Shown here: in pieces, positions 34,130-60,118 of the stretch | Numbering within the stretch: position 1 is the stretch's first letter | Layout of the letters: every line of letters begins with the position of its first letter | Origin: Candidatus Peregrinibacteria bacterium | GTDB lineage: Bacteria > Patescibacteriota > Gracilibacteria > Peribacterales > Peribacteraceae | DNA: 64,000 nucleotides | Direction of reading: 5' to 3' | Assembly: GCA_018648865.1 (NCBI GenBank) | Contig: JABGQH010000009.1 | Coordinates: 12,917-76,916 of the forward strand | Notes under the pieces: generated by a model | What the model saw: the letters and a program-made list of their open reading frames with translations, nothing else | The model's database searches: none | What the model was told of the DNA's origin: nothing | Translations under genes and position numbers: made by a program

Positions 34130-34252
34130 AGTATTTGGAGAAAGTTGTGACAGGAGTGGCAGAATACAGAATGGTATAATGATGTCAAATATTCTGCTCA
34201 AATGGACAAAACAAAATAATGATTTTGTAATAAATATCAGCATTTCACTTAT

Positions 34253-43991: not shown

Positions 43992-44070
43992 AGGTTCAGT
44001 TTACATTATTTACATAAAGACTATATGTTTTATATGAAGATTGAAATATAGGTATGTATACTATTATTAA

Positions 44071-45750
44071 ATGAAAAAGATATGCACAAAGTGTTCGGCA
44101 GGATTTGAGATCACAGAAGAAGATATTGATATGCTGAGTGATTTAAGTCCTGTGATTGGAGGGAAGAAATACGAAATTCCACCACCAACGCTTTGTCCTA
44201 GGTGTAGATCCAAAAGAAGGCTATCTCATGTTAACCAATTAAATTTATATGAGAGGAAATGTAATCTAACTGGAGCAAGCATTATTTCAAATATTAGACC
44301 TGAGTTGCCTTATAAGGTATATCGCCAAGAAGATTGGTACAGCGATAAGTGGGATCCATTAGATTATGGAATGAATTTTGATTTTAATAGACCATTTTTT
44401 GAACAATGGAATGAGCTTGTATTAAATGTTCCACTCCCCAATCTATTTACAGGATATGAATTTGATGAAAATTGTGAATATACAAACCACGCAGGTAAAA
44501 ATCAGAATTGTTATTTGGTTTTTGATTCAGATGAAGACAGAGACTGCTATTACAGCTACAGCATAAATCAGTGTGTAAATTGTATGGACTGCTATCGAAC
44601 TAGGAAGTCTGAATTATGTTATGAGTGTGTTGATTGTGTTAAATGTTATGAGTCTTCATTCTTACAAGATTGTAATAATTGTAGCTCTAGCATGTTTTTA
44701 AAAAACTGTACTGGATGTAAAAACTGCTTGATGTGCTCTAACATGAACAATAAAGAATATTTTGTAGAAAATAAAAAAGTTTCAAAAGAAGAGTTTGAAA
44801 ACTTTAGATCATTATTGGGTTCATATGCTTCTTTAAAGAATGCAAAAGAAAGGTTTATGAAATTAAAATTAGAGTATCCACAAAAATATATACATGGGAT
44901 TCAAAACGAAGATGTAGTAGGGGATTACCTAGTTAATTGTAAAAATGCATATATGTGCTTCGATAGCGAGGACTTATGGGATTGCAGGTATGTTTGCCAA
45001 GGTTTTATGCCTCTAAAAAATTGTATGGATATAGATGAATGTGGAGAGGCAGAAAAGTTGTATGAGTGCACGGTTTGTGGTTACCAAATTAATTCCTGTT
45101 GCTTCTGTGACCATACATTAGGAATGATGACTGACCTTTTATATTGTTCCCATTGCCCACATACTACAGATTCATTTGGTTGCAGAGGTGTTCAAAGAAA
45201 GGAGTACTGCATTCTAAATAAGCAATATACAAAAGAAGAATATGAAGAATTGGTACCTAGGATTATTAATCACATGATTGAAACAGGTGAATGGGGCGAG
45301 AACTTTCCATCCACAACATCTAAATACGCATATAACGAGACGATGGCTCAAGATCATTATCCACTAAATAAAGAGCAGGCAGTTAAAGAAGGTTTAAATT
45401 GGCTAGATGATGAAAAGAAGATTGATCAATACATGGGTCCAGTAAATGTATTACCAGATAATGTGAAAGATGCCCCCGATGATGTTTGTAAAAAAATCTA
45501 CATTTGTGAGGAATCAGGTGAGCCATATAAAATTATTCCTCAGGAACTTTCGTTTTATAAAGAATTAAATTTACCATTACCTAGAAAAGGTTTCTTTAAA
45601 CGTAATAAGGATAGAATGAAGTTAAGAAGCCCAAGAAAATTATATGGCAGGAAATGCGAAGAGTGCGGAATTGAATTCATGACTTCTTATGCATTAGATA
45701 GAGAGGAAAAAATCTTTTGCGAATCCTGTTACCAGAAAGCTCTAATATGA
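44071..45750 (+). CDS. Cys-rich zinc-ribbon/repeat protein, array copy 1
   Basis: CxxC...PTLCPxCR...WYSDKWDP...DFNRPFF, Cys repeats, GEWGE.FP, C-terminal FCESCY. Confidence 0.9.
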   Translation: MKKICTKCSAGFEITEEDIDMLSDLSPVIGGKKYEIPPPTLCPRCRSKRRLSHVNQLNLYERKCNLTGASIISNIRPELPYKVYRQEDWYSDKWDPLDYGMNFDFNRPFFEQWNELVLNVPLPNLFTGYEFDENCEYTNHAGKNQNCYLVFDSDEDRDCYYSYSINQCVNCMDCYRTRKSELCYECVDCVKCYESSFLQDCNNCSSSMFLKNCTGCKNCLMCSNMNNKEYFVENKKVSKEEFENFRSLLGSYASLKNAKERFMKLKLEYPQKYIHGIQNEDVVGDYLVNCKNAYMCFDSEDLWDCRYVCQGFMPLKNCMDIDECGEAEKLYECTVCGYQINSCCFCDHTLGMMTDLLYCSHCPHTTDSFGCRGVQRKEYCILNKQYTKEEYEELVPRIINHMIETGEWGENFPSTTSKYAYNETMAQDHYPLNKEQAVKEGLNWLDDEKKIDQYMGPVNVLPDNVKDAPDDVCKKIYICEESGEPYKIIPQELSFYKELNLPLPRKGFFKRNKDRMKLRSPRKLYGRKCEECGIEFMTSYALDREEKIFCESCYQKALI

Positions 45751-47399
45751 AAAACTCTTGCAGCGAATGCTCGGCAAAATTTGAAGTAACAGATAGTGAT
45801 TTAGAATTCTTTGGTAAATTTAAATACCCCATATCTACACCTACTCTGTGTCCGGCCTGTCGAGTACAAAGGAGGATGTCTTGGAGGAACGATAGAACTT
45901 TCTACCATCGAAAATCCTCCTTATCAAAAAAACAGATGGTATCTATTTATCCAGAAAATACCCCTTGGCCTGTATATCTACAGAGTGAGTGGTATAGCGA
46001 TAAATGGAATCCTTTGGATTATGGAATTGAATTTGATTTTAGCGTTCCATTCTTTACTCAGTTTAAAGAGCTAATGATGACAGTACCTAGACTGGGTATG
46101 GATTTAATTAATTGTGAGAACAGCGAATATTGTAATTACTGTGGTGATGATAAAAACTGTTATTTAGATATTGCAGGTGAGGCCAATGAAGATTGTTACT
46201 TCTGTTTATTTACTAAATATTCAAAAAATTGCTTAGACTGCACATTCGCTTATCATTCAACTCTGTGTCATGAATGCATACAGGTTTACAACTCATATGC
46301 ATGTAGGAATTCTATGTACTTAGATAACTGCAGTGATTGCGCATTTAGTTTCGATCTAAAAGGATGCAAGAACTGCCTACTTTCTATTAACCTTCGTAAT
46401 AAAGAATATTATATTTTGAACGAACCTCATACAAAGGAGGAATATGAAAAGAAACTTTTAGAATTAAATTTGAGTTCTAATGAAGCACTAAAAAGTGTTC
46501 ATGATATTTGGAAAAAAATGAGAATTGAAAATGGAATCTATAGAGACATGTACACCTTGAATTGTGAAGACTGCACAGGAAATAACGTTAAGACATCAAA
46601 AAATTGTCATGGATGTTACAACACAACAGACTCAGAAGATTGTAAATATTTATATGATGTCCTAGATGCAAAGGACTGTCAGGATTTAAATTACTCACTT
46701 TATAAACCAGAGGTAGCATATGAACTCTGTTCAACGTTAAATATGACTTATAGCGCCTTCTGCTACGCTTCTCATTACAGTAATAATTGTTTCTATTGTG
46801 ATAAGACAAATCATAGTAGCAACTGTTTTGGTTGTATTGGATTAGACCATATGGAGTATTGCATTCTGAACAAGCAATATACAAAGGAAGAATACGAAGA
46901 ATTGCTGCCAAGAATTATCGCATACATGGAAAAAACTAAAGAATGGGGACAGTTCTTTCCAGTTACACTTTCACCATATGGATATAACGAAACTGTTGCC
47001 CATGAATACATGCCACTAACTCAGAAAGAGGTAGAGAAGAATGGTTGGGTTTGGACGTTGCAAGAAGAAAAGGAAAGTTACATGGGTCCAGAAGTACAAA
47101 TACCAGATACAATTTCGGATGTAAGCGATGATATTTGTAATGAGCTTATAACCTGCGATAAAAGTGGTAAGCCTTTTAAGATAATTCCACAAGAGCTTAA
47201 ATTTTATCGCGAGCAGGGGATTCCAATACCTAGGAGGTCCCCAATGCAAAGGCATACAGATAGAAATGACCTAAGAAATCCACGCAAGCTCTGGGACAGA
47301 AAATGTGATAAGTGCTCAAATGATATTCAAACAAGTTACAGTCCAGATAGGCCAGAGAAGGTTTTTTGTGAGGAATGTTATCTAAAAGAGGTATACTAG
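45747..47399 (+). CDS. Cys-rich protein, array copy 2 (start ATG 45747, ATGA overlap with copy 1 stop)
   Basis: Paralogue; MKNSCSEC aligns with the other N-termini; ends CEECYLKEVY. Confidence 0.9.
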   Translation: MKNSCSECSAKFEVTDSDLEFFGKFKYPISTPTLCPACRVQRRMSWRNDRTFYHRKSSLSKKQMVSIYPENTPWPVYLQSEWYSDKWNPLDYGIEFDFSVPFFTQFKELMMTVPRLGMDLINCENSEYCNYCGDDKNCYLDIAGEANEDCYFCLFTKYSKNCLDCTFAYHSTLCHECIQVYNSYACRNSMYLDNCSDCAFSFDLKGCKNCLLSINLRNKEYYILNEPHTKEEYEKKLLELNLSSNEALKSVHDIWKKMRIENGIYRDMYTLNCEDCTGNNVKTSKNCHGCYNTTDSEDCKYLYDVLDAKDCQDLNYSLYKPEVAYELCSTLNMTYSAFCYASHYSNNCFYCDKTNHSSNCFGCIGLDHMEYCILNKQYTKEEYEELLPRIIAYMEKTKEWGQFFPVTLSPYGYNETVAHEYMPLTQKEVEKNGWVWTLQEEKESYMGPEVQIPDTISDVSDDICNELITCDKSGKPFKIIPQELKFYREQGIPIPRRSPMQRHTDRNDLRNPRKLWDRKCDKCSNDIQTSYSPDRPEKVFCEECYLKEVY

Positions 47400-47419
47400 G
47401 CACCAATGCAGAAAAAATG
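47361..47419 (+). repeat. 59-bp junction repeat, exact copy at 49050-49108; variants at junctions near 50750-50800, 52435-52485 and 54125-54176
   Basis: GTTTTTTGTGAGGAATGTTATCTAAAAGAGGTATACTAGGCACCAATGCAGAAAAAATG occurs twice. Confidence 0.92.
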
Positions 47420-49088
47420 CTGTAAATGTCCGGGATCGTTTGAAATAACTGACGAGGATTTAGTATTTTACGACAAAGTTTCACCAATAATTAATAAAAA
47501 GAAACACAGAATACCAACTCCTACTCTATGCACACCCTGTAGAGAGCAGAGGCGTTTAGCAATCCCGAATGTTAGAAACTTCTATTCTAGAGAATGTAAT
47601 CTTTGTCAGAAGATGATGGTATCAGCATATGCATCCGATCAACTATTTACAGTCTATTGCCAAGAATGTTGGTGGGGTGATAAGTGGGATGAATTAACTT
47701 ACGGTGTTGATGTTGATTTCTCACGTCCATTTATCGAGCAGATGCAAGAATTACAACTAAAAGTGCCACGGCTTACCTTGATGAATAAGGCTGCAGAGAA
47801 CAGTGAGTTCTGTAACTACGCAGGATTCAACAAGAATTGTTATCTAGCAATTGCTGGTTCGTGGTACAACGAAGATTGTTTATATGGAACGTGTTTCGAT
47901 CACTCAAAAAACTCTGTGGATTGCTCATTTCTTTCTTACGGAGAATTGTGTTACGAATGCATCTATGGCACTAAATTATACAATTGTGTTTACTGTGTTG
48001 ATTCCTCTGATTCCTCAGATTGTCTATTTTCATTCAATTTAAGAGGTTGTAGAAATTGCATTCTAAGCAGTAATATACGTAACAAACAGTATTACATACG
48101 TAATAAGCAATGCACTAAGCAAGAATTTGATGAAATCAGGAGTATGATTTCTAGGTACGAAATCTTCCAGAAATATCTAACAGAGTTTCACAAGTGGAGA
48201 AAAACACTCTTGCGTCCAGCTAACTACAATATTAACTGTGAAGATTGTATCGGCGACTATCTGCGGAATTGCAAAAATGTAGTAAACGGCTTTATTGGAA
48301 ATGGGGTAGAGGATGCAAAAAATGTTTTCATGGTTGAGTATTCAAAGGATTTTATGGACTGTTGTTTTGCAGGTTACGATAATGCTCAACTTTTCTATGA
48401 ATGCATAGCCGCTGGTATAGGAGGGCAGCGTAATCAATTCTGTTTTCAGAATTGGTCATGCAATGACATACTTTATTGCGATACACCACAGTCATCATCA
48501 GACTGTTTCGGTTGCATTTGTATTCGCAATAAACAATTTTGTATTCTAAATAAGCAATATTCAAAGAACGAATACCAAGAGTTAGTACCAAGAATCATAG
48601 ATCTTATGAAAAAACATGGAGAGTGGGGAGAGTTCTTTCCATCTAGCTATAGTCCATTCGCTTATAACGAGACATTTGCTCAAGACTACTATCCTCTAGC
48701 CAAAAAAGAAGCACTAATGAATAATCTAAAATGGAGAGAGGACACTAATGAAATATTAAAAGTAGATCGAACTATACCTTCTAGTAATCTACCTGATTCT
48801 ATCCATGACATTCCAGATGATATTCTTAATTGGGCTGTAATATGTGCAGAAACTGGTAAGCCGTACCGTATTGTAAAACAAGAACTTTACTATTATCGTT
48901 CACAGAACCTACCAGTTCCTCGATTACACTACGATGCTCGCAATAAGCATCGCATCCAATTACACAATTTGAATAAGATACACAAAAAGCAATGCGACAA
49001 GTGCAACAAAGAAATGCATACAGTTTATTCAACTGATTGTTCTGAAACAGTTTTTTGTGAGGAATGTTATCTAAAAGAGGTATACTAG
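47406..49088 (+). CDS. Cys-rich protein, array copy 3
   Basis: Paralogue, 560 aa, ends CEECYLKEVY. Confidence 0.9.
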   Translation: MQKKCCKCPGSFEITDEDLVFYDKVSPIINKKKHRIPTPTLCTPCREQRRLAIPNVRNFYSRECNLCQKMMVSAYASDQLFTVYCQECWWGDKWDELTYGVDVDFSRPFIEQMQELQLKVPRLTLMNKAAENSEFCNYAGFNKNCYLAIAGSWYNEDCLYGTCFDHSKNSVDCSFLSYGELCYECIYGTKLYNCVYCVDSSDSSDCLFSFNLRGCRNCILSSNIRNKQYYIRNKQCTKQEFDEIRSMISRYEIFQKYLTEFHKWRKTLLRPANYNINCEDCIGDYLRNCKNVVNGFIGNGVEDAKNVFMVEYSKDFMDCCFAGYDNAQLFYECIAAGIGGQRNQFCFQNWSCNDILYCDTPQSSSDCFGCICIRNKQFCILNKQYSKNEYQELVPRIIDLMKKHGEWGEFFPSSYSPFAYNETFAQDYYPLAKKEALMNNLKWREDTNEILKVDRTIPSSNLPDSIHDIPDDILNWAVICAETGKPYRIVKQELYYYRSQNLPVPRLHYDARNKHRIQLHNLNKIHKKQCDKCNKEMHTVYSTDCSETVFCEECYLKEVY

Positions 49089-49094
49089 GCACCA

Positions 49095-50786
49095 ATGCAG
49101 AAAAAATGTCCTAAGTGCTCGGCGTCATTTAATGTAACTGACGAGGATATTTTGCTTTTAGATAAATTATCACCAGTGATTAATTCCAAAAAGCATAGTC
49201 TGCCAGCTCCTACATTATGTTTTAGCTGCAGATTACAAAGGAGGCTAGCGTTCTATAATTCTAGATCGATTTATCCTAGGAAATGCGATCTAACAGGAAA
49301 AAACATTGTATCTATTTATTCACCGGATAAGCCATACAAAGTTTACGAGAGAAGAGAATGGTATGGGGATAACTGGGATCCATTTGAATATGGCAGAGAT
49401 TTTGATTTTAATAGACCTTTCTTTGATCAATTCAAAGAATTACTAGATTCGGTTCCACATCTTTCTTTAACAGTACTAGGAGAGACTGTTAATAGTGAAT
49501 TCACTAATGACAATTTGATAGTAAAAAATTGTTATCTAATATTCGACGGAGAGAGAGCAGAGGATTGTATGTATGGTCATACATTTGTTGGTATCACTTC
49601 ATGTTTAGATTTTGCAGCAGCGGTAGATTGTGAACTCTGCTATGAAACGATCCATTGCAATAATTGTTATAACTGCAAATACAGTAGATATTCTACAAAT
49701 TGTAGTGATAGTTGGTTTATTAGGGACTGCATAGGATGTAAGAACTGTTTTGGATGTGCTAATTTGAGGCAAAAACAATATTGCATATTTAATGAACAAA
49801 AAACAAAAGAGGAATACGAGAAATACTTAGAACAATTCGATTCAACCTCGTATAAAACTGTTCAGGATATGATTAATAAAACAAATGAGTTCTTTCTGAA
49901 ATATCCTGTAAAAGAATGTAGAGGAGAACAGAATGTTGATGTCACAGGGAATAATCTAAATCAATCAAAGGATTCAAAAGACTGCTTTGACTGCAACAAA
50001 GTACAGGACTGCCATTACTGCACAAATTGCTTGGTAGGAGCAAAGGACTGCAGTGATATACATATATGGGGAGACAGCATGGAGCTCTGTTATGAAAGCT
50101 GCGTAATTGGTGTAAAGACTCAAAACTTATTGGGCTGTTATTATGTGTCACAAGGTGCAGACAACATACTCTATTCTATGTATTGCAGCAGAAGTGTAAA
50201 AAACCTATTTGGTTGCATAGGGTTACGGCATAAGAGCAATTGTATTTTCAACAAACAATATTCAGCAGAAGAGTATGAAGATCTAGCTGAAAGAATCGTT
50301 GAGCATATGAAGAAGACTGGAGAATGGGGGGAGTTCTTTCCATCTTCTATATCTGGCTTTGGTTATAACGAAACAATGGCTCAGACATTCTTTCCCTTAG
50401 AAAAAGACGATGCAAAGAAGCTTGGCTATTCATGGAGTGAATACCAATCTCCTGTAGAGGCAGATCGTACGATTGATGCTTCAAAGTTGCCAGATAGTAC
50501 AAATGACATCCCAGACGATGTTTTGAACTGGGCCATCGTATGCACAGATACAGGAAAGCCTTTTAAAATAATTAGGAAGGAACTTGAGTTTTATAGAGAT
50601 CATAAATTGCCGATTCCTCGTAAGCACCCAGACCAAAGGCATTACGATAGATTTGCTATTAAAAATCCATATCACCTTTGGGATAGATCATGCGATAAAT
50701 GTTCTAAAGAAATTAAAACAACATACGCACCAGAAAGGCCAGAAACAATTTTCTGTGAAGAATGCTATCTAAAAGAGGTATACTAA
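49095..50786 (+). CDS. Cys-rich protein, array copy 4
   Basis: Paralogue, 563 aa. Confidence 0.9.
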   Translation: MQKKCPKCSASFNVTDEDILLLDKLSPVINSKKHSLPAPTLCFSCRLQRRLAFYNSRSIYPRKCDLTGKNIVSIYSPDKPYKVYERREWYGDNWDPFEYGRDFDFNRPFFDQFKELLDSVPHLSLTVLGETVNSEFTNDNLIVKNCYLIFDGERAEDCMYGHTFVGITSCLDFAAAVDCELCYETIHCNNCYNCKYSRYSTNCSDSWFIRDCIGCKNCFGCANLRQKQYCIFNEQKTKEEYEKYLEQFDSTSYKTVQDMINKTNEFFLKYPVKECRGEQNVDVTGNNLNQSKDSKDCFDCNKVQDCHYCTNCLVGAKDCSDIHIWGDSMELCYESCVIGVKTQNLLGCYYVSQGADNILYSMYCSRSVKNLFGCIGLRHKSNCIFNKQYSAEEYEDLAERIVEHMKKTGEWGEFFPSSISGFGYNETMAQTFFPLEKDDAKKLGYSWSEYQSPVEADRTIDASKLPDSTNDIPDDVLNWAIVCTDTGKPFKIIRKELEFYRDHKLPIPRKHPDQRHYDRFAIKNPYHLWDRSCDKCSKEIKTTYAPERPETIFCEECYLKEVY

Positions 50787-50792
50787 CTGCCA

Positions 50793-52472
50793 ATGCAGCA
50801 AACCTGCGAAAAGTGTTCGGCAATGTTTGAAGTCACAGAAGGGGATTTAGAGTATTACGATGAAATATCGCCTATATTTAACGGAAAGAAATACTTAATA
50901 CCTCCTCCTGTTCAGTGCCCTGAATGTCGCTTTCAGAGGAGGTTAATATTTAGAAATGAAAGAAAATTATATAAAAGAAAATCAGATGTTTCAGGAAAAC
51001 AAATAGTAAGTATGTTTGCTCCAGATAATCCACATAAAACATGTACACAGGACGAGTGGCTTAGTAATGATTTTGACGCAATGCAGTTTAGTAGAGATTT
51101 TGATTTTGATAGTCCATTTTTCGATCAGCTAAAGGAGTTGAATATTGATGTACCGCATCCTGGTTTAAATAATACAAATGTAGAAAATAGCGAATTCACA
51201 AACTTTGCACTAAATCAGAAAAATTGTTATCTGATATTTGGAGCAGGGGATAATGAGGATTGTATATATGGAAAGTTCATTGTCTCTTCTAACAATGTTG
51301 TAGACAATTTGTCGTTATACTCCTGCGAATTTTGTTACGAAGGAGTGTCGTCTCAAAATTGTTATGAATGTACATATTTCAAAAATTGTCATAATTGTGC
51401 AAATTGCATGATGGTAGAAGACTGCAGTTCATGCAAAAACTGTTTAATGTGCTTTGGGTTAAGGAACAAGGAATATTGCATATTGAATGAGCAATTATCT
51501 AAAGAAGAATATGAAAACAGGAGAAGCAAGATTGATCCTTTAACTAATAAGAAGATTTTGGAGATGCAATTTGAATTAGATAAGTTAAAAGAAAACATTC
51601 CTCATATTGATTCTCATATATACGCGAGTGAAGATTGCACTGGTGAAACTATTTATAACAGTAAGGGGTGTCATAATTGCTTTGATATTAAGAATTGTGA
51701 GGATTGTAAATATACATCTTATACTCCGAATGGCGTTGCCTCTTACGACTCCACATTTACTGCTCCGGATGGTGTTAGGTGGTGCAATAATGTTATTTCT
51801 GCAATTGGACACAGGTGCATGGGTACTTTCTTATGTTGGTATACAAACGATGTTTATTACTCAATTAATTGCAGGAATTGTGACTTCTGTTTTGGATGTG
51901 TTGGATTACAGAATCAAAAATATTGTATTTTCAACAAGCAATACTCAAGAGATGAGTATGAAGTCATTGTTCCTAAGATAATCAAAAAAATGGAATCTGC
52001 AGGAGAATGGGGGCATTTCTTGCCTCCAGAACTTTCACATTTTGCATATAACGAGACAATTGCTAACGAATATTTTCCTCTTCTAAAAAAAGAAGTTGAA
52101 AAGAGGGGATTTAGGTGGAGAGAAGAAGATGAAGTTATTCCAGATGTAGAAAAGATAATTCCTGCTAGTCAGCTTCCACCATCAATATCAGATATTCCGG
52201 ACGATATATTAAATTGGGCTGTTAAATGTGAAATAACAGGAAGACCATTTAGAATTATAAAACCAGAATTGAATTACTACAGAAAAATGGGTCTTCCAAT
52301 TCCTCATGTTCATCCAGATGAAAGGCATAATATAAGACTTAGGAAAAAGAATCCTTACAAGCTATGGCAATGTAAGTGTGCAAACTGCTCCAAGGAAATT
52401 AAAACAACCTACGCACCAGAAAGGCCTGAAACAGTTTTTTGTGAAGATTGCTATCTAAAAGAGGTATACTAA
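50793..52472 (+). CDS. Cys-rich protein, array copy 5
   Basis: Paralogue, 559 aa. Confidence 0.9.
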   Translation: MQQTCEKCSAMFEVTEGDLEYYDEISPIFNGKKYLIPPPVQCPECRFQRRLIFRNERKLYKRKSDVSGKQIVSMFAPDNPHKTCTQDEWLSNDFDAMQFSRDFDFDSPFFDQLKELNIDVPHPGLNNTNVENSEFTNFALNQKNCYLIFGAGDNEDCIYGKFIVSSNNVVDNLSLYSCEFCYEGVSSQNCYECTYFKNCHNCANCMMVEDCSSCKNCLMCFGLRNKEYCILNEQLSKEEYENRRSKIDPLTNKKILEMQFELDKLKENIPHIDSHIYASEDCTGETIYNSKGCHNCFDIKNCEDCKYTSYTPNGVASYDSTFTAPDGVRWCNNVISAIGHRCMGTFLCWYTNDVYYSINCRNCDFCFGCVGLQNQKYCIFNKQYSRDEYEVIVPKIIKKMESAGEWGHFLPPELSHFAYNETIANEYFPLLKKEVEKRGFRWREEDEVIPDVEKIIPASQLPPSISDIPDDILNWAVKCEITGRPFRIIKPELNYYRKMGLPIPHVHPDERHNIRLRKKNPYKLWQCKCANCSKEIKTTYAPERPETVFCEDCYLKEVY

Positions 52473-52478
52473 TCACCA

Positions 52479-54164
52479 ATGCAGAAAACTTGTACTAAAT
52501 GTTCGGCTCCGTTCGAGGTAACCGATGATGATATTAAATTTTACGAGAATGTTTCCCCTATTATAAAAGGAGAAAAGTATATTATTACTCCTCCTAAATA
52601 TTGCCCTGATTGCAGATTACAGAGGAAGGTTTGCTTTCGAAATGAACGCATGTTTTATAGTCGAAAAAGTGATTTAACAGGAGATATGATGGTTTCCATA
52701 TATGCTCCAGATATTCCATACAAGATATATGATCAAGAAGAATGGTGGAGCAAGAAGTGGGATGCCAGAGACTATGGACGTGAATTTGATTTTACAAGAC
52801 CATTTTTTGATCAAATGAATGACCTATGGAAGGAGGTTCCAATAGTTACATTATGGAATTCAAACTGCGAGAATGCCACATATAACAATAACTGCTTCCA
52901 TTTGAAGGATAGTTATATGAATTACAACAGTGACGAAGGAGAGAGAATTATGTATTCATATGGAACGGAATTCTGCACTGATTCTGCTGATTGTACATTC
53001 GTACAAAAATCTGAACTTTGTTATGAATGTACCGATTGTACGAGAGCATATACATGTATATTTTCTAGTCTTTTGGATAACTGCACAGACTGCTCATTCA
53101 GTTCAGACTTGATGGGATGTAAGAATTGTTTTGGCTGCCATGGACTTAGACAACAAAGTTATTGTTTCTTTAATGAACATCTCTCAAAAGATGAGTGGGA
53201 AGATCGTATGAAATCTATTAGTTATACACCACAAAATATAAGTAAATATAAAAAACAATCTGAAGAAGTGCGTATGAAGGTGCCACAAGTTGCTACAAAA
53301 ATGGTGCAGTGTTCGGACAGTACAGGAAACTTTTTATATAACTGTGCCAATTCTGAAAATTGTTTTGATATGCATAATTGCGAATTTGTTAAGAATGGAA
53401 TTTACGTTCCTTGGGACGTAAAACATGCGCAAGATGTATACGCACATGCTGGAGCAGAATGGAGTTACGAAGTAATTGCAGGGGGAATAGGAATTTCACA
53501 TGTTGCATTTATAAATGGTTTAGTTAGTGGCCTAAGTGATAGTTACTATTCAGTCCAATGCGGATACGGATCTAATAATCTATTTGGATGTGTAAGTATG
53601 ATGAAATATAAATATTGCATTTTAAATAAGCAGTACACAAAAGAAGAATACGAAGAGCTTGTGCCTCGTGTCATAGAACACATGAAAAAGAATGGAGAAT
53701 GGGGAGAATTCTTTCCCCCTAGTATTAGTCCATTTGCGTATAACGAAACAATGGCACAGGAATTCTTCCCTCTAACAAAAGAAGAAGCTCTTAATCAAGG
53801 ATATAAATGGAGAGATATACAAGATGAACTGCCAAAATCTGACAGAGTGATTTCTTCAGATAAGTTGCCACCATCAATCGAAGATATTCCTGACGACATC
53901 CTAAATTGGGCAATTAAATGTGAAGTTAGTGGGAGACTTTATAAAATTACATCTCAAGAATTGGATTTTTACCGTCGCATGAAATTACCGGTTCCGAGAT
54001 TGCATTACGAGAAGCGCTATCAAAACAGGGCAAAAAGTCGACCTCCACGCAAGCTTTGGAATCGCAAATGTAACAAGTGTGATATTGATATACAGACAGT
54101 CTATTCACCTGATAGGCCAGAGAAAGTTTTTTGTGAAGATTGCTATTTAAAAGAGGTATACTAA
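52479..54164 (+). CDS. Cys-rich protein, array copy 6
   Basis: Paralogue, 561 aa. Confidence 0.9.
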   Translation: MQKTCTKCSAPFEVTDDDIKFYENVSPIIKGEKYIITPPKYCPDCRLQRKVCFRNERMFYSRKSDLTGDMMVSIYAPDIPYKIYDQEEWWSKKWDARDYGREFDFTRPFFDQMNDLWKEVPIVTLWNSNCENATYNNNCFHLKDSYMNYNSDEGERIMYSYGTEFCTDSADCTFVQKSELCYECTDCTRAYTCIFSSLLDNCTDCSFSSDLMGCKNCFGCHGLRQQSYCFFNEHLSKDEWEDRMKSISYTPQNISKYKKQSEEVRMKVPQVATKMVQCSDSTGNFLYNCANSENCFDMHNCEFVKNGIYVPWDVKHAQDVYAHAGAEWSYEVIAGGIGISHVAFINGLVSGLSDSYYSVQCGYGSNNLFGCVSMMKYKYCILNKQYTKEEYEELVPRVIEHMKKNGEWGEFFPPSISPFAYNETMAQEFFPLTKEEALNQGYKWRDIQDELPKSDRVISSDKLPPSIEDIPDDILNWAIKCEVSGRLYKITSQELDFYRRMKLPVPRLHYEKRYQNRAKSRPPRKLWNRKCNKCDIDIQTVYSPDRPEKVFCEDCYLKEVY

Positions 54165-54170
54165 ATACCA

Positions 54171-55835
54171 ATGCAGAATTGTATTTCATGTAACGTTTCA
54201 TTCGAAGATAGTCAGGCAGAGATATCTTTAAGAGCAAAGATTGGCGATGCTATACAAAAAGGTGATTTGCCAGAGCCAAAGCTATGTTGTGACTGCAGAT
54301 TAATTCAACTAATGAGTTGGAGGAATGAACGCATTCTATATACGAGAATGTGTGATAAGAGTGGCAAAAAGATAATCTCTGTTTATCCGCAAAATGTAGC
54401 TTTCCCTGTTTATGAAAAATCTATTTGGTGGGGAGACAGTTGGAACGCCACAAACTATGGCCAGGATTATGATTTTAATAGACCATTCTTTGAGCAGTTT
54501 GCAGAATTACAAAGAAATACTCCTCGTGCGTCATTAAATACAAAGAATGTTGAGAATTGCGATTATTGTAATTTTACGTTTGATTCAAAAGATAGTTACT
54601 TAACAACGTGTTGTTATTACTCAGAATCAATTCTATACAGTTTTTGGATGCTTGAGTGCAAAGATTGTACTGAATGTAGTTATTGTTTTCAGTGTCAGAA
54701 CTGTTTGCAGTGCACTGACTGCAATAAATCATATGGTTGCTATGAGTGTGTGCAATGCAATGTTTGCACTGATAGTTCGTACTTATTTGATTGTCGTGGT
54801 TGTACAGACTGTTTTTGTAGTGTCGGATTAAGAAATGCTAAATATCACATGTTTAATGAGAAATTATCTAAAGAAGAATTTGAAAATAGAATGAAAGAAT
54901 TTGATTTGCAAAATCCAGTACATGTAGAAAAGGTAAAAGAACGATTAGATGCTTTAAAATTAAAACACCCACACAAATATTCTGTGCAGGAAAAGTGTGA
55001 AGACTCAACGGGGGACCATATAGTAGAATTAAAAGACTGCAAAAATTGCTATCAGACATTTAGATCCAGAGATTGTATAAATGTAACAGACGCGGACGGA
55101 AACAATGATTTGCTTGATTGCTATCATACTGGTTGGTCAGAAATGATATATGAAGGATATTCACCAGTTAGACTTAGGAACTCTGCATTTGAGGTACAAT
55201 GCTGGGATGGCAATGACATCTTCTATTCAGATACATGCCAGAATTGCTCATATTGCTTTGGGTGTATTAGCTTGCGACAAAATAAATATTGCATATTGAA
55301 TAAACAATATTCAAAAGAAGAATATGAAGTAATGCTCTATAAAATAATTAATCATATGAAATCTACAGGTGAGTGGGGGAAATTCTTTCCAAATGAAATT
55401 TGTATATTTTCTTATAACGATTCTGTGGCTCAGGATGTATATCCTCTAGAAAAAGAGGAAGCAATTAAACGAGGATGGAAATGGCAAGATAATCTCCCAT
55501 TTACTATGGGAAAGGAAACTACAACTTGGAATAGCTATGAAATGAAGATTGAAAAGGTGCAAGAAGATATATTAAATGAGATATTTGCCTGTGAATGTTG
55601 TAAAAAGAATTATCGTATAATTAGATCTGAACTCAAGTTTTATAAACAAATGAAGTTACCATTATCTAGGCTTTGTTCAGGATGTAGACACTTAGAAAGG
55701 ATCAAGACCAGAAATCCAAGAAATTTACATAACAGAACATGTAATAAATGTAATAAGGAAATTCAAACCACTTTTGCACCAGAAAGACCAGAAAAGGTTT
55801 ACTGCGAGGAATGTTATTTGAAAGAGGTTTATTGA
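54171..55835 (+). CDS. Cys-rich protein, array copy 7
   Basis: Paralogue, 554 aa. Confidence 0.9.
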   Translation: MQNCISCNVSFEDSQAEISLRAKIGDAIQKGDLPEPKLCCDCRLIQLMSWRNERILYTRMCDKSGKKIISVYPQNVAFPVYEKSIWWGDSWNATNYGQDYDFNRPFFEQFAELQRNTPRASLNTKNVENCDYCNFTFDSKDSYLTTCCYYSESILYSFWMLECKDCTECSYCFQCQNCLQCTDCNKSYGCYECVQCNVCTDSSYLFDCRGCTDCFCSVGLRNAKYHMFNEKLSKEEFENRMKEFDLQNPVHVEKVKERLDALKLKHPHKYSVQEKCEDSTGDHIVELKDCKNCYQTFRSRDCINVTDADGNNDLLDCYHTGWSEMIYEGYSPVRLRNSAFEVQCWDGNDIFYSDTCQNCSYCFGCISLRQNKYCILNKQYSKEEYEVMLYKIINHMKSTGEWGKFFPNEICIFSYNDSVAQDVYPLEKEEAIKRGWKWQDNLPFTMGKETTTWNSYEMKIEKVQEDILNEIFACECCKKNYRIIRSELKFYKQMKLPLSRLCSGCRHLERIKTRNPRNLHNRTCNKCNKEIQTTFAPERPEKVYCEECYLKEVY

Positions 55836-55877
55836 TTCTTATACGTAATATCAATTTGCTGTTATTATATTTAAGTA

Positions 55878-57545
55878 ATGCAAAAAACATGTAACCAGTG
55901 TTCAACTTCATATGAAATATATGATGATGACAAAGCGCTTCTACATAAAATTTCGCCTACAATTGGTGGTAGAAAATTTGAAATACCAGTATCGGATATT
56001 TGCCCAGAATGTAGGCAGCAACGTAGAATGTCCTTTAGAAACGAAAGGAAGCTGTATCGCAGGAAATGTGATGTTACAGGCAAGGATATCATTTCTATAT
56101 TCTCTTCGGACTCTCTTTTTAAGGTATGTGATAAGGATTACTGGTATAGCGATAAATTTGATCCCTTGGAATATGGCAGAGACTATGATTTTAATAGGCC
56201 ATTCTTTGAGCAATTCAAGGATTTGTCATTAACAATCCCTATGCCATCTATGCGCGTGGAAAGGTCAGAGAATTGTGATTTTAACAATGACATGGGGGAT
56301 TGTAAGAACTGTTACTTGTGTGCACGAACACATCAGTCACAGGATCTTATATACACATACAGAGGCAACAGATCATCTAGTTCAATAGATTGCACTCAGA
56401 TAACCAGATCAGAGATTCTTTATGAATGTGTTGATTGTGTTAAGTGCTACAACTGTAAATATTCATTCTTTTGTAGTGAATGTACAGATTGTTCTTTTCT
56501 ACTTGATTGTAGGAGTTGCATGTCCTGCTTTATGTGTACAAATCTTAGGAGTAAACAGTATTGTTTCTTAAATGAGCAACTAACCAAAGAAGAGTACGAG
56601 AAAAGACTTTCAGAATTTAATTTTGGTTCTTATGACCATGTTCAAAGAGCTTACAAAATGTACGCAGATATAAAAAAGAAAGCCATCCGTAGGAATCTTA
56701 TAAAAGTAAATGCAAACAACTCAACAGGCGACAATTTAATAGACTGTAATAATTGCCATATGTGCTTTAGCACTCAGTTTACAGAGGACGGTAGGTATCT
56801 GTGGGATGTTAAGGATTACAAGGATTCAATGGATGCATATAGCGGAGGAAGAAATAGTGAGCTTATGTACTACACAACTGCAGGGGCTGCTTCGTATAGT
56901 GTTCAGTTTTGCTTTAGGACATCTGGATGTAATGATGTTTTGTATTCGTTCTATATTAATACATCTAAAAACATATTTGGATCTATCGGTTTAAAAAGGG
57001 GAAACTTTTGCATTCTAAACAAGGAATATACAGAAGATGAATATAACGATCTGATGCCAAAGATTATTGATCATATGATCAGCACTGGTGAGTGGGGCAA
57101 GTTCTTTCCGTCTTCCCTTTGTCCATTTGCTTATAATGAAACTGTTGCTGACGAATTCTTTCCCCTAGATAAGGGAAGAGCTAACGATTTAGGATATAGG
57201 TGGAAAGAAGATGATCCAAAGGATTTTATGCCTCAAACATATAACATTCCAAATAACATTTCTGATGTTAAGGATGATATTTTAAATGAGGTTTTGGCAT
57301 GTGATACATGTAATAAGAATTACAAGATAGTTCCTGCTGAACTTAAGTTTTATAGAAATCATAATCTAGCTATTCCTAGGTACTGCATCGATTGCAGACA
57401 TATGAGGAGAAATAAAACAAAGAACCCAATGAGAATTAGAAAAGACATTTGCAAGAAATGTAATTCAGAAATGGATACTACATATCCAGAAGGAACAGAT
57501 ATGCAGATAATTTGTGATGATTGCTATCTAAAAGAGGTTTATTAA
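55878..57545 (+). CDS. Cys-rich protein, array copy 8
   Basis: Paralogue, 555 aa, ends CDDCYLKEVY. Confidence 0.9.
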   Translation: MQKTCNQCSTSYEIYDDDKALLHKISPTIGGRKFEIPVSDICPECRQQRRMSFRNERKLYRRKCDVTGKDIISIFSSDSLFKVCDKDYWYSDKFDPLEYGRDYDFNRPFFEQFKDLSLTIPMPSMRVERSENCDFNNDMGDCKNCYLCARTHQSQDLIYTYRGNRSSSSIDCTQITRSEILYECVDCVKCYNCKYSFFCSECTDCSFLLDCRSCMSCFMCTNLRSKQYCFLNEQLTKEEYEKRLSEFNFGSYDHVQRAYKMYADIKKKAIRRNLIKVNANNSTGDNLIDCNNCHMCFSTQFTEDGRYLWDVKDYKDSMDAYSGGRNSELMYYTTAGAASYSVQFCFRTSGCNDVLYSFYINTSKNIFGSIGLKRGNFCILNKEYTEDEYNDLMPKIIDHMISTGEWGKFFPSSLCPFAYNETVADEFFPLDKGRANDLGYRWKEDDPKDFMPQTYNIPNNISDVKDDILNEVLACDTCNKNYKIVPAELKFYRNHNLAIPRYCIDCRHMRRNKTKNPMRIRKDICKKCNSEMDTTYPEGTDMQIICDDCYLKEVY

Positions 57546-57652
57546 TAAAATATAGGGGTGGGGGTATATATATGCATTCAAAAGTGGCTATTTATCGCTA
57601 ATATATGCAGAGAAAGCTTCACATTTAGTAAATTTTAAAGTAAAATTCATGA

Positions 57653-59893
57653 TTGATGGCGCTTTCTTATTTGCATATCGTTATTCCACAGGGAAACCCA
57701 AATTCTCCTAAGTTAGAATCAAAATGGCAGGAGTTGTTAATTGCTCTAAGAAATACGATTACAGGTGAAAGGTTTTCATTTGAGTATTTTGGAAACGAAC
57801 AATATACATATTTTTATGTAGTTTCTAAAAAGAAGTACCAAGGAACCATAGAGGGTCGAATATACTCTTCGTTCCCAGATGCAGAAATATATGAAGTAAG
57901 TGATTACACTAGCAAGTTTAATCCAGAAAAAAGTGGATTTGCTGGGACACAGGTATCTCTATCAGAAAAAGATGTTTATCCAACTAGAACATACGAACAA
58001 TTTGAGGAAGACAGCATGGCACCATTCTTTTCAGTGGTTTCTAAGATAGAAAGTGGTGAGCAAGTTTGGACTCAAATAATTGTAGAGCCGCATGACGATA
58101 CAGGTAGATATCATTTAAGAAGGAATTTTAGGTATTGGCTGGTTAGAATGAAAAAGTTCTTTTCTGTGCGGGATAGATTAAGGAAGGAAGGATTGAAGGG
58201 AATAAATGCAGTAAGATTTGATATGGCAAAAGATAAAGAAAAAACAAAACCATTCAAGGTAAGTATCAGATGTTGCTACATTGCGAAAGATTCAGAAATA
58301 GCAAAAAGAAAGCTCCGCTCTGTAGTTAATAGCTTTTATCAATTCAATGATTCAGATATTAATTCATTTGAATCTTCTAGGTACTCAACTTCCGATAAAT
58401 TCATTGATAATTACAAAAACAGAAAGCACGCAAAGACATTCATATTAAGTGCTAAGGAATGTGCAACCATATATCACTTACCAAATGCGGACTTTACTCC
58501 ACATATAGTTCATGTACTTGCTCGCAAATCAGATCCTCCTAGAGATCTACCAAGAAAAGGAGAGAAAGAAGTAAGTGCTTTTGGTGTTACCAATTACCAT
58601 AACAACTTTGTTCCATTTGGTATAAAGAGAGAGGACAGAAGGAGACATTTGTATTGTGTAGGTAAGTCTGGATCTGGAAAAAGTAAATTATTGGAACTAT
58701 TGATTAATACAGACATAAAAGATGGTCACGGTGTTGCTGTCTTGGATCCTCATGGTGATTTAGTAGATGCAATACTTAAGCTAATCCCAGAGGAAAGGAA
58801 AGATGATGTAGTTTTGTTAGATCCAGGTGATATAGATTTTCCAATTGCGTTTAACCCACTTCAACAAGTTGATGAGGCATACAAAATGCAATTAACAATT
58901 GGATTCTTAGATATTTTCAAGAAGCTATTTGGAGATAACTGGACATATAGATTGGAGCACGTGCTTAGATATACAACTCTAGCTTTGTTAGACAGCCCTA
59001 ATACTACAGTCTTAAGCATACTTAAGATGCTTACAGACAAGAACTACAGACAAAAGATTGTTTCTAGGATCAACGATAATGTTGTTAAGAGTTTCTGGGT
59101 TAGCGAGTTTGCTGCATGGAGTGAAAAGTACGATGCTGAAGCAATTACACCACTGCTAAATAAAGTTGGGCAATTAGTAGCAACAAACATGGTTAGGAAC
59201 GTAATTGGTCAGCCAGAAACAAAGTTTGATATCAGAGAGATAATGGACAACAAGAAAATACTTCTTATGAAAGTATCCAAGGGACTACTCGGAGAAGAAA
59301 ACTCAGCTCTAGTAGGATCAATGATTATCACAAAGATGTATCAGGCTGCAATGAGTAGGGCAGATACTGCAGAGGCAGATAGACCTGATTTCTACTTTTA
59401 TGTAGATGAGTTCCAGAACTTTGCCACAGACACATTTTATGAAATCTTATCTGAAGCTAGAAAGTATCATCTTAATTTAACAATCGCTCATCAATATATG
59501 GGACAGTTGAGTGATAAGATTAGGCAAACAGTATTCGGTAATGTTGGTTCTATGATTAGCTTCCGTGTTGGAGCAGAGGATGCAAAGATTCTATCAGAGG
59601 AGTACAGTCCTATCTTTAACGAGCGCGATATTATTAATCTTGGTGTACGTGAGTTCTACACAAAGATGTCCATAGATGGAGAAATTAGAGAAGCTTTCTC
59701 TGGCAGAACCATGGATGCTCCAGTTCCTACAAATGATATATCTAAAGAAATAAGAGAATTATCTCGAAAGAAATATTGTGAACCAAAAGCAAATGTAGAA
59801 GTAATGTTAAAGAAATGGGATGAAGCAGCTTCTGCAGAAGCAACAGAAGAAGAAATGGCAGTAGAAGAAAAGTTTGAGGAGCCAATATTGTAA
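57653..59893 (+). CDS. VirD4/TraD/TrwB-like (HerA-FtsK superfamily) ATPase
   Basis: HLYCVGKSGSGKS, LDPHGDL, FYVDEFQNF, LSEARKY, AHQY, FRVG.EDA. Confidence 0.9.
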   Translation: MMALSYLHIVIPQGNPNSPKLESKWQELLIALRNTITGERFSFEYFGNEQYTYFYVVSKKKYQGTIEGRIYSSFPDAEIYEVSDYTSKFNPEKSGFAGTQVSLSEKDVYPTRTYEQFEEDSMAPFFSVVSKIESGEQVWTQIIVEPHDDTGRYHLRRNFRYWLVRMKKFFSVRDRLRKEGLKGINAVRFDMAKDKEKTKPFKVSIRCCYIAKDSEIAKRKLRSVVNSFYQFNDSDINSFESSRYSTSDKFIDNYKNRKHAKTFILSAKECATIYHLPNADFTPHIVHVLARKSDPPRDLPRKGEKEVSAFGVTNYHNNFVPFGIKREDRRRHLYCVGKSGSGKSKLLELLINTDIKDGHGVAVLDPHGDLVDAILKLIPEERKDDVVLLDPGDIDFPIAFNPLQQVDEAYKMQLTIGFLDIFKKLFGDNWTYRLEHVLRYTTLALLDSPNTTVLSILKMLTDKNYRQKIVSRINDNVVKSFWVSEFAAWSEKYDAEAITPLLNKVGQLVATNMVRNVIGQPETKFDIREIMDNKKILLMKVSKGLLGEENSALVGSMIITKMYQAAMSRADTAEADRPDFYFYVDEFQNFATDTFYEILSEARKYHLNLTIAHQYMGQLSDKIRQTVFGNVGSMISFRVGAEDAKILSEEYSPIFNERDIINLGVREFYTKMSIDGEIREAFSGRTMDAPVPTNDISKEIRELSRKKYCEPKANVEVMLKKWDEAASAEATEEEMAVEEKFEEPIL

Positions 59894-60118
59894 TCGGATC
59901 TTGAAATTAGAAGTAAATTACTTTTTATAAAAGTAAGTACCCCTTCATTCCGCTTTGCGGAACTTCGGAGCACACAGTATCTTGCGACTCACTGCGTCGC
60001 TACGCTCCTTGCTTGTCTGCAATTCAACTGTGGCGGAGCCATGTAGTAAGAACTTTCTCGTTTTTGTTGTATTTATTGGCCTGCCATGTAGTGAACGAAC
60101 GAAGTGAGTTCTACTACA

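Follow-up and report, generated by a model that had tools for sequence, protein, structure and literature searches.

In a stretch of 64,000 nucleotides (nt) from a Candidatus Peregrinibacteria genome (contig JABGQH010000009.1; hereafter, the window, whose positions are numbered from its first letter), the region 44071–57545 is filled by eight intact genes, all located on the + strand and each encoding a cysteine-rich protein of 550–563 amino acids (aa), according to the listing of the open reading frames (ORFs; copy 2 being read from the ATG at 45747). On the same strand, a gene encoding a P-loop ATPase of the type IV coupling protein (T4CP) family (57653–59893) starts 108 nt after the eighth copy. 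The eight cysteine-rich genes and the ATPase gene constitute one accessory module, which is present or absent as a block. The ATPase, mentioned as a mere landmark ("VirD4") in a first-pass annotation of this DNA, is a co-inherited partner of the array and belongs to the same system. The genome (1.13 Mb, 23 contigs, 99.97% complete) harbors exactly these eight full-length copies of the family, and such an eight-copy array is far beyond what might be expected by chance.

Distribution and Co-Inheritance of the Array and the ATPase

At least 5,980 matches to the cysteine-rich family were retrieved in one database search, and an exhaustive profile search among 1.84 billion representative proteins disclosed at least 2,440 clusters at 50% identity (E up to 1e-30). 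All of them are named "hypothetical protein" in the source databases, with the only exception of one automatic Atlas label (CaiB/BaiF) lacking Pfam support. In an even sample of the phylum, the family was found in 16 out of 301 genomes, including eight in the class of the window's genome and four of the six genomes of one other family. In the set of 41 related genomes, 20 harbor full-length members, up to 37 matches being present in a genome of about 0.9 Mb; another 14 possess a single weak match only (E 1e-5 to 1e-12), which probably corresponds to a small finger protein (described below), and seven possess none.

The ATPase was found by tblastn beside arrays of cysteine-rich genes in other genomes. 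A full-length orthologue (at least 50% identity) is present in 19 of the 41 related genomes, and all 19 are among the 20 that possess full-length cysteine-rich genes; the twentieth (G006) contains a 153-aa piece of the ATPase with 57% identity. No full-length orthologue was found in any of the 21 related genomes without the cysteine-rich family. In 12 of the 19 genomes, the ATPase gene is located at most 1.2 kb from a cysteine-rich gene, and in four the contig ends preclude a call. The same adjacency recurs in other classes of the phylum (G112, G158, and G067). In a phylogenetic tree of the ATPases (62 rows, with one fragment dropped), constructed by an IQ-TREE quick search under LG+G4 and whose supports need some caution, a clade of 29 sequences (Shimodaira–Hasegawa approximate likelihood ratio test 100) comprises all 18 ATPases adjoining cysteine-rich genes, together with 11 from genomes holding the family; the 22 rows contributed by genomes lacking the family all lie outside this clade.

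The behavior of the module as a block can be seen in G011, a genome lacking the family, in which the order TsaD, Lgt, Mur ligase, riboflavin kinase, transketolase-like gene, and C39 peptidase is kept, and a single gene with an SLH domain, located between the riboflavin kinase and the transketolase-like genes, occupies the place of the 15.9-kb block formed by the eight genes and the ATPase. Since the flanks are conserved, the block represents either an insertion or a deletion between conserved neighbors. In a genome of the same genus (G001, 75% complete), the riboflavin kinase gene is followed by an unrelated 531-aa gene and then by the contig end. No direct repeats were found flanking the block, and no integrase or transposase was detected among the 19 window neighbors scanned in Pfam. 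The neighbors of the ATPase gene are the array and the transketolase-like gene; neither virB4 nor a relaxase gene adjoins it.

Organization of the Array

The eight genes start at intervals of 1659–1707 nt and are packed in an operon-like fashion, with intergenic gaps of −4, 6, 6, 6, 6, 6, and 42 nt; the ATG of copy 2 (45747) overlaps the stop codon of copy 1 by 4 nt. Their products share 35–44% identity in all 28 pairwise comparisons, with 67 invariant columns in the full-length alignment, and each of them contains 31–47 cysteines, i.e., 5.5–8.5% of the residues, against a genome median of 0.98% (638 ORFs of at least 200 aa). The first-pass annotation had described eight intact same-strand paralogues of about 550–563 aa built on one scaffold and devoid of signal peptides and frameshifts, and this description is borne out: the coordinates and the spacing agree with it, every motif that it named (the CxxC pairs, W.SD.WD, DFDF.RPFF, YCILNKQY.KEEY, GEWG.FFP, YNET.A, and CxxCY) is found in the alignment of the eight copies, no frame breaks occur, and neither signal peptides nor membrane segments are seen in the eight copies by hydropathy, the only approach used (maximum of a 19-residue window not above 1.63, with polar N-termini).

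Copy 1 (44071–45750, 559 aa) has its closest relatives in orthologues of G024, G007, and G019, with 66% identity to that of G024, and copy 2 (45747–47399, 550 aa; ORF open from 45717) has orthologues in G013, G004, and G019 (about 60%). Copy 3 (47406–49088, 560 aa), whose orthologue in G007 is 50% identical, retains all four cysteines of a second N-terminal finger. Copy 4 (49095–50786, 563 aa), the best database relative of which is 69% identical, was used for structure modeling. Copy 5 (50793–52472, 559 aa) belongs to an orthologue group with G023, G035, and G013; copy 6 (52479–54164, 561 aa) has the fewest cysteines (31) and copy 7 (54171–55835, 554 aa) the most (47), the latter without a close orthologue among the genomes fetched. 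The orthologue of copy 8 (55878–57545, 555 aa) in G024 likewise adjoins the ATPase gene.

The best conserved DNA of the array lies at the gene junctions, where a family of 36-nt elements (D7) is 86–100% identical in six of seven copies, against about 60–78% elsewhere. Conserved junctions are located at 47365–47400, 49054–49089, 50752–50787, 52438–52473, 54130–54165, and 57511–57546. They correspond to the last codons of most of the genes (peptide ...CYLKEVY) and hold a Shine–Dalgarno-like sequence, AAAGAGGT, about 14 nt upstream of the next ATG. The CYLKEVY end may be a protein motif doubling as a translation-coupling signal, although the spacing is longer than usual. Outside these junctions, no long near-identical DNA repeats able to drive shuffling were found.

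The array is separated from the divergently oriented riboflavin kinase gene by 79 nt (43992–44070), a presumed promoter region in which a single weak sigma-70-like match (44000–44029) was recognized by consensus only. The promoter and terminator scan was uninformative, the promoter-like sites being 49 against 70.9 expected and the terminator-like ones eight against 7.9 expected.

Structure of the Cysteine-Rich Proteins

Pfam and NCBIfam recognize only the ends of the proteins: PF23477 (zf_Tbcl_2, best E 5.9e-7) and TIGR04272 (CxxC-x17-CxxC, best E 2.6e-5) each match five of the eight copies, and in the remaining three no match to a finger profile reaches E 1. The four cysteines of the terminal CxxC-x17-CxxC (C533, C536, C554, and C557) are conserved at 95–100% in 173 sequences of the family. 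The only other family-related gene of the genome, located on contig C20 (L009:1459–1755, +), encodes a free 98-aa protein composed of the two fingers zf_Tbcl (PF13451) and zf_Tbcl_2 (PF23477), with E about 1e-18 (2.4e-18 for PF23477), which aligns to residues 475–555 of the family (C-terminal 90 residues, E 1.9e-11). A profile–profile comparison indicates that the N-terminal finger (4–62) is homologous to the first C-terminal one (482–531), with a probability of 99.1% and E 1e-18. The latter is degenerate in most copies, with a single Cys at 483, His or Cys at 511, and His at 516, its CxxC...CxxC being kept by copies 7 and 8. The segment following the N-terminal finger resembles, by eye only, a degenerate second finger, of which copy 3 retains the four Cys. 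Both ends are predicted to be pairs of treble-clef zinc fingers, with three to four fingers per protein.

Small proteins of Methanosarcina mazei containing CxxC-x17-CxxC have been reported to bind zinc, as determined by inductively coupled plasma mass spectrometry, and a transcription-related role has been suggested for them by the authors (PMC12704099). By analogy, the paralogues might act without the ATPase, as zinc-finger nucleic-acid binders (regulators or factors that bind RNA or DNA), their linkage with it reflecting only co-regulation or a shared ancestry of the locus. The number of fingers per protein would fit such a role, as would the existence of the same finger pair in the free 98-aa protein and the similar weak single matches in 14 relatives. 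The near-perfect co-occurrence and the recurrent adjacency with one ATPase clade across classes are at odds with it; moreover, eight to dozens of co-oriented, packed genes are unlike regulators, and the proteins are net acidic (Asp plus Glu 71–88 versus Lys plus Arg 64–77). This explanation is considered improbable.

The approximately 400 residues between the fingers have no family match in Pfam or NCBIfam. They contain two cysteine-rich modules, which are homologous to each other (hhalign probability 99.9%, E 4e-34, 116 columns) and both of which terminate in FGC.GL...K.YCI.N.Q.[ST]KEEYE. In the 173 sequences, Cys–Cys spacings are enriched 2- to 5.7-fold at all the multiples of 3 up to 36, and the other spacings are mostly depleted (down to 0.15-fold), none being enriched (the highest values are 1.09 at 19 and 1.07 at 22). 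On the basis of column statistics, module 1 (residues 133–228 of copy 4) consists of eight coils of 12 residues, each opening with [N/D]-C, whose positions 2, 5, 8, and 11 (every third one, pointing inward) are occupied by Cys, Ser, or hydrophobic residues; in the runs C182/185/188/191 and C212/215/218/221, 74–98% of the sequences have Cys.

The AlphaFold2 model of copy 4, built on an alignment of 90 sequences, has a mean predicted local distance difference test (pLDDT) value of 85.6 and a predicted template modeling score of 0.87, the termini exceeding 90 in pLDDT. No match at E up to 1e-3 was obtained with this model in a Foldseek search of the PDB, all the rows having E 0.46 or worse, and most of these weak rows are left-handed beta-helices. 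In the VIA structure search, whose rows all lie on residues 126–270 and which barely tested the terminal domains, that segment falls on beta-helices, such as phi29 gp12 (Z 6.7), LpxD (6.3), and GlmU (6.0), and the antifreeze helices reach Z 4.0–5.8 (3ult 5.8, 1m8n 5.5, and 1ezg 4.0). The comparison of the family profile with the sequences of solved structures returned only chance-level rows (E 0.036 or worse), and the ESM Atlas returned unnamed clusters only, plus one weak zf_Tbcl cluster at 0.82. Because of the strict Cys periodicity and of the moderate-confidence model, the repeats are modeled as narrow beta-solenoids lined with cysteines, which may be loaded with metal, be paired in disulfides, or be free.

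The Cys-laddered beta-solenoid and the zinc-finger termini that had been proposed by the first-pass annotation find support, the former in the modeling and in the strict period of 3 within 12-residue coils, the latter in the profile matches and the conserved cysteines. No characterized enzyme family matches the cysteine-rich proteins in Pfam, NCBIfam, or the solved structures, nor does any family of PADLOC-DB match the two of the eight copies that were scanned against it.

Age and Specialization of the Copies

A FastTree phylogeny was computed for the eight copies of the window along with 83 full-length family members drawn from ten further genomes; on it, the window label requires eight changes for its eight rows, no copy being the sister of another. 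Six of the eight copies are placed with support in clades containing members of other genera. Copy 2 is 61% identical to a member of G013, copy 6 groups with G004 at support 89, below the star threshold, and copy 7 has no close partner. The topology of this tree indicates that the eight copies represent ancient subfamilies rather than the outcome of a local burst.

The distribution of the divergence along the proteins depends on which copies are compared. Among the window paralogues, the identity is 24% in the linker, 30% in module 2, 36% in module 1, and 45–49% in the termini. When copies 1, 2, and 4 are paired with their orthologue-like counterparts, the identity is 74–82% in module 1 versus 48–70% in the termini, and within the orthologue groups module 1 is the best conserved part, module 2 equals the termini, and a clearly lower value is confined to the linker. 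The same inversion is observed when all the pairs of the 173 sequences are considered: in the bin of 30–40% identity, module 1 has 36% and the termini have 42–45%, while in the bin of 60–70% the values are 71% and 61–64%, respectively. Within the orthologue groups, 66–88% of the inward and 51–79% of the outward positions of module 1 are identical, compared with 39% and 34% between the window paralogues. Since inward and outward positions are both conserved within groups, each subfamily keeps its own Cys pattern and its own surface. A module 1 that diverges between paralogues and is conserved between orthologues points to specialized recognition surfaces, each under its own purifying constraint, rather than to arms-race variability.

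Contig pieces from four further metagenome runs, belonging to four studies, exhibit 0–3 differences per listed piece at this locus; where differences cluster, which is rare, the contigs are short and deep and apparently derive from paralogues of other organisms. The near invariance of the locus in the four runs speaks against hypervariability at the strain level. The array content and order differ between genomes: the position adjoining the ATPase is occupied by a copy-8-type member in G024, by a copy-2-type one in G013, and by a copy-1-type one in G019.

These data bear directly on the hypothesis of a fast-evolving binding repertoire, diversified locally as in antigenic variation or in an arms race, which was close to the proposal of the first-pass annotation. 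The size and content of the arrays do vary between genera (identical content across relatives had been regarded by that annotation as an argument against its proposal), and divergence between copies is greatest in the solenoids. Nevertheless, no window copy is the sister of another, module 1 is the best conserved part within orthologue groups, the four runs differ by 0–3 positions per listed piece, and the array DNA is devoid of long near-identical repeats. The idea of a set diversified in place is hence not upheld, given the eight ancient subfamilies of the tree and the nearly invariant locus, and that of a variable surface holds between paralogues and fails for module 1 within orthologue groups. 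Such a repertoire is contradicted by the data and has to be regarded as very improbable.

The same comparison can be used to evaluate whether the proteins serve as buffers of metal, sulfur, or redox equivalents, with the Cys ladders holding metal or reducing equivalents and the copy number setting the capacity. The 31–47 cysteines per protein and the CxxCxxCxxC runs would be suited to this function, and zinc binding by a terminal motif related to that found here is known in another organism (PMC12704099). Yet the ladder positions are often Ser, Leu, or Val instead of Cys, the Cys pattern is specific to each subfamily (39% of inward identity between paralogues and 66–88% within orthologue groups), and the outward residues are conserved within groups as well. 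In addition, an ancient divergence, at 35–44% identity, is unlike a dosage amplification, and the coupling-type ATPase would be left without a role. Buffering is accordingly judged quite improbable.

The Downstream ATPase

The ATPase (57653–59893, +) is 746 aa long and scores 39.1 bits with PF02534 (T4SS-DNA_transf; cut-off 20.1) and 25.8 bits with PF10412 (TrwB_AAD_bind; cut-off 20.5); its weak Pfam matches are DUF87, TrwB_AAD_bind, and TraG-D_C, and it lies far below all the cut-offs of the NCBIfam equivalogs. The model of the protein (pLDDT 86.7) matches, in Foldseek, TrwK/VirB4 (E 5e-17), TrwB (E 1.5e-13, template modeling score on the target 0.66, root mean square deviation (rmsd) 4.7–5.7 Å), HerA, and DotL, and its helices 408–532 form an all-alpha insert in the NTPase domain. 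Walker A is present, starting from residue 337, and the Walker B residues D585 and E586 are invariant in 51 orthologues; the enzyme is predicted to be catalytically intact. In PADLOC-DB, it matches mad8 at 1.4e-12 and, weakly, the HerA models, as any such P-loop protein might.

No N-terminal membrane anchor was found by hydropathy, the only method applied, in the window ATPase, whose maximum over 19 residues is 1.07. In four of the five array-type ATPases checked, no segment exceeds 1.6, and the fifth has one, which is internal (residue 449). A hydrophobic segment is present in 12 of the 16 relatives sampled outside the clade, nearly always at the N-terminus, and in these relatives Walker A lies some 60–150 residues further from the start. 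The suggestion that the first 190 residues are unique to the array type was dropped, as blastp aligns generic paralogues from about residue 39.

All 41 related genomes carry 2–6 matches to this class of ATPases. In the genome of the window, three more paralogues of the T4CP family (810–897 aa) are located among ordinary genes (C20:127317–130007, C21:6814–9243, and C21:33891–36563), and only one of these three contains clear transmembrane-like segments.

The affiliation of the ATPase to the coupling-protein family introduces the main rival explanation, according to which the paralogues are effectors or substrates that the ATPase passes to a Patescibacteria-type type IV secretion system (T4SS) for delivery to a host, with the termini acting as the signal and the solenoids as binders of host targets. 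Arrays of paralogous effectors are located beside virD4 in Bartonella. A VirB4-like ATPase (PF19044, 1e-26; PF11130) and three T4SS pilin genes (PF18895) are encoded on contig C20 of the genome (52130–54379 and 60231–61584; L051), and this function would match the lifestyle of the phylum, the large share of reduced genomes that the family occupies (the 37 matches in about 0.9 Mb), and subfamily-specific conserved surfaces, which would suit conserved host targets. In a survey, T4SS genes are reported to be essential for epibiotic growth in Saccharimonadia, and of 5,713 VirD4-type T4CP homologues in 2,918 Patescibacteria genomes only 148 are near virB4, an exaptation of these homologues being "not ruled out" by the authors (PMC12102498). 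What speaks against secretion is, in the first place, the lack of a transmembrane-like N-terminal segment in the five array-type ATPases checked, in contrast to most of the sampled relatives. Furthermore, the module lies on another contig (C15) and is unlinked to the VirB4-like and pilin genes, the C-terminus of the proteins is a structured zinc finger instead of a disordered basic tail, cysteine-rich folds with several zinc ions would resist the unfolding needed for export, and the family is patchy, whereas the T4SS is described, in the same survey, as widespread in the phylum (PMC12102498). Delivery to a host is, on the whole, rather unlikely.

A Tentative Mechanism

The reading that we prefer, although only tentatively and short of an even chance, is that the paralogues are recognition subunits or clients sharing one soluble motor of the coupling type. 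The zinc-finger pairs at both ends and the core around DFDF.RPFF, GEWG.FFP, and YNET would represent a conserved "handle", and the paralogues would be interchangeable, the solenoids of each of them binding a different conserved ligand. The handle, common to all of them, would serve for docking to a single hexameric motor, by which the paralogues or their load, whether protein or nucleic acid, would be moved or remodeled.

A bolder and more doubtful version of this idea is that, in Patescibacteria, a clade of T4CPs lost its anchor and was exapted as the common motor of an ancient, interchangeable set of proteins with fingers and a double solenoid, endowed with subfamily-specific surfaces and perhaps with stacked metal sites, the whole acting in the cytoplasm as a recognition system or else representing a new class of T4SS clients. 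If this were true, the module would be a modular machine not described so far, able to fill several percent of a reduced genome and to be acquired or lost as one block.

Several points weigh against a shared soluble motor. The genome is equipped with a Patescibacteria-type T4SS, which leaves a route for export, and the soluble state of the ATPase and the cytoplasmic role of the module are deduced solely from the lack of signal and anchor segments in the hydropathy profiles. The criterion for ATPase orthologues (full length and at least 50% identity) was set after seeing the data, although the ATPase tree supports it; in three of the 19 genomes, the ATPase gene is not beside a cysteine-rich gene within the fetched flanks, and co-occurrence among kin is not independent evidence. 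As for the structure, the modules of the copy 4 model have pLDDT values of 58–74, i.e., of moderate confidence, and the best fold matches are weak, their Z (up to 6.7) falling within the range common for unrelated repeats. The DNA stretch is present in 20 runs, whose holders are marine or seawater metagenomes, and no RNA run is listed among them. Finally, it is from linkage that we infer a physical coupling, and the same applies to what the ligands are and what the module does in the cell. The prediction of a complex between full-length copy 4 and residues 1–300 of the ATPase gave a score of 0.00, which counts neither for nor against binding.

Genes and Forms Associated with the Arrays

Among the first 16 loci fetched, 10 contain ORFs of about 255 aa, mostly placed head-to-head with the first gene of the array, and one of these ORFs was confirmed as a member of the TrmB family (PF01978, E 1.6e-8). 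TrmB-type winged-helix regulators are located, for example, at L023:6519–7304, L033:4395–5189, and L028:13635–14396, sometimes several per array region. No TrmB-type orthologue was found in the window's genome (best E 8e-4). The ORFs in the gaps of the arrays of other genomes are otherwise miscellaneous, only the TrmB-type regulators being recurrent.

Three single cases of longer forms were observed in the family, which may be fusions due to gene calling: P0121 (1114 aa) apparently consists of two copies in tandem, judging from its length and from a query cover of 99%; P0305 carries an N-terminal GNAT domain (acetyltransferase), and P0321 an unassigned C-terminal extension of about 250 aa. In G026 (L032, C1:1–20000), shortened cysteine-rich ORFs of 159, 432, 262, and 213 aa flank one intact copy, and about 7 kb away there is a split, divergent homologue of the ATPase with an in-frame stop; the intact ATPase of this genome lies at the end of its other contig. 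This region may be a decaying second module.

The same strain is represented over 44000–59900 in marine or seawater metagenomes of several studies (2016–2020), with 0–3 differences per listed contig piece. Elsewhere in the window, two ORFs (33287–34243, −, 318 aa; 35083–36018, +, 311 aa) have no Pfam family at E up to 1e-3, and their neighbors encode a Vut_1 vitamin transporter, a TPM-domain protein, a DUF6612 protein, and a PKD-repeat protein.

Comparison with Known Systems

No paper describing the cysteine-rich family or its link with the ATPase was found in the literature, even though the supplementary tables of PMC4736985 (Table S4) and PMC12102498 might list some members. The cysteine-rich proteins of the Peribacteria paper are a different set, with about 1655 aa on average and mostly with signal peptides (PMC4736985), and the available text of a metaproteome paper on Gracilibacteria makes no mention of the family (PMC11452946).

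As regards the ends of the proteins, the profile matches and the CxxC-x17-CxxC at the C-terminus are those of the zf_Tbcl and zf_Tbcl_2 fingers. In the proteins analyzed here, these fingers are only the ends of a 560-aa protein; in most copies, the first C-terminal and the second N-terminal ones have degenerated, their Cys being missing or substituted by His. The ATPase resembles the type IV coupling proteins (VirD4/TraG/TraD/TrwB) in its Pfam scores, TrwB-like fold, helical insert, and Walker A and B motifs; it differs from them in that no anchor was found by hydropathy, its gene is not beside virB4 or a relaxase gene, its scores are below those of the NCBIfam equivalogs, and it belongs to a clade of its own.

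The repeat of the antifreeze protein of Tenebrio molitor is formed by 12-residue coils arranged in a narrow, Cys-braced beta-helix. Similarly, the modules described here are predicted to have 12-residue coils in which every third residue points inward and is Cys, Ser, or small, and the two folds match weakly; on the other hand, the cysteine-rich proteins look cytoplasmic and have up to four Cys per coil rather than two, and no Thr-x-Thr ice-binding face is visible in the alignment of the eight copies. The hexapeptide acyltransferases LpxD, LpxA, and GlmU are the best-fitting solved folds for module 1 (125–249), with Z 5.9–6.3 and rmsd 2.7–3.6 Å over 110–125 residues; module 1 differs from them in its coil period, which is 12 instead of 18, and has no hexapeptide match in Pfam at E up to 1.

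At the level of the whole system, the Bep effectors of Bartonella, encoded beside virD4, and the mycobacterial PE/PPE proteins, associated with EccC, are paralogous substrates tied to an ATPase of the FtsK/VirD4 class. The likeness to the module consists of paralogues with conserved and variable parts, linked to one coupling ATPase and taking a large share of the genome. In those systems, the ATPases are membrane-anchored parts of secretion machineries and the folds are unrelated, whereas export of the array proteins is only conjectural.

The genomes of Patescibacteria are very small, these bacteria rely on other cells, and their dealings with hosts and phages are little understood. Through the tie with one dedicated ATPase clade, what was a list of hypothetical proteins becomes a system open to testing, and the double solenoid embedded between finger pairs, which has no clear counterpart among the solved structures, is a worthwhile structural target. 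The module would also represent a concrete case of the exaptation suggested, in the survey, for the T4CP homologues located away from virB4 (PMC12102498). What was already known concerns its components: the ends fall into a finger family described earlier, and the ATPase is a member of an established superfamily. The novelty is at the system level, where the 400-residue core, the double Cys-lined solenoid of 12-residue coils, and the pairing with an apparently anchor-less clade of T4CPs match no described system.

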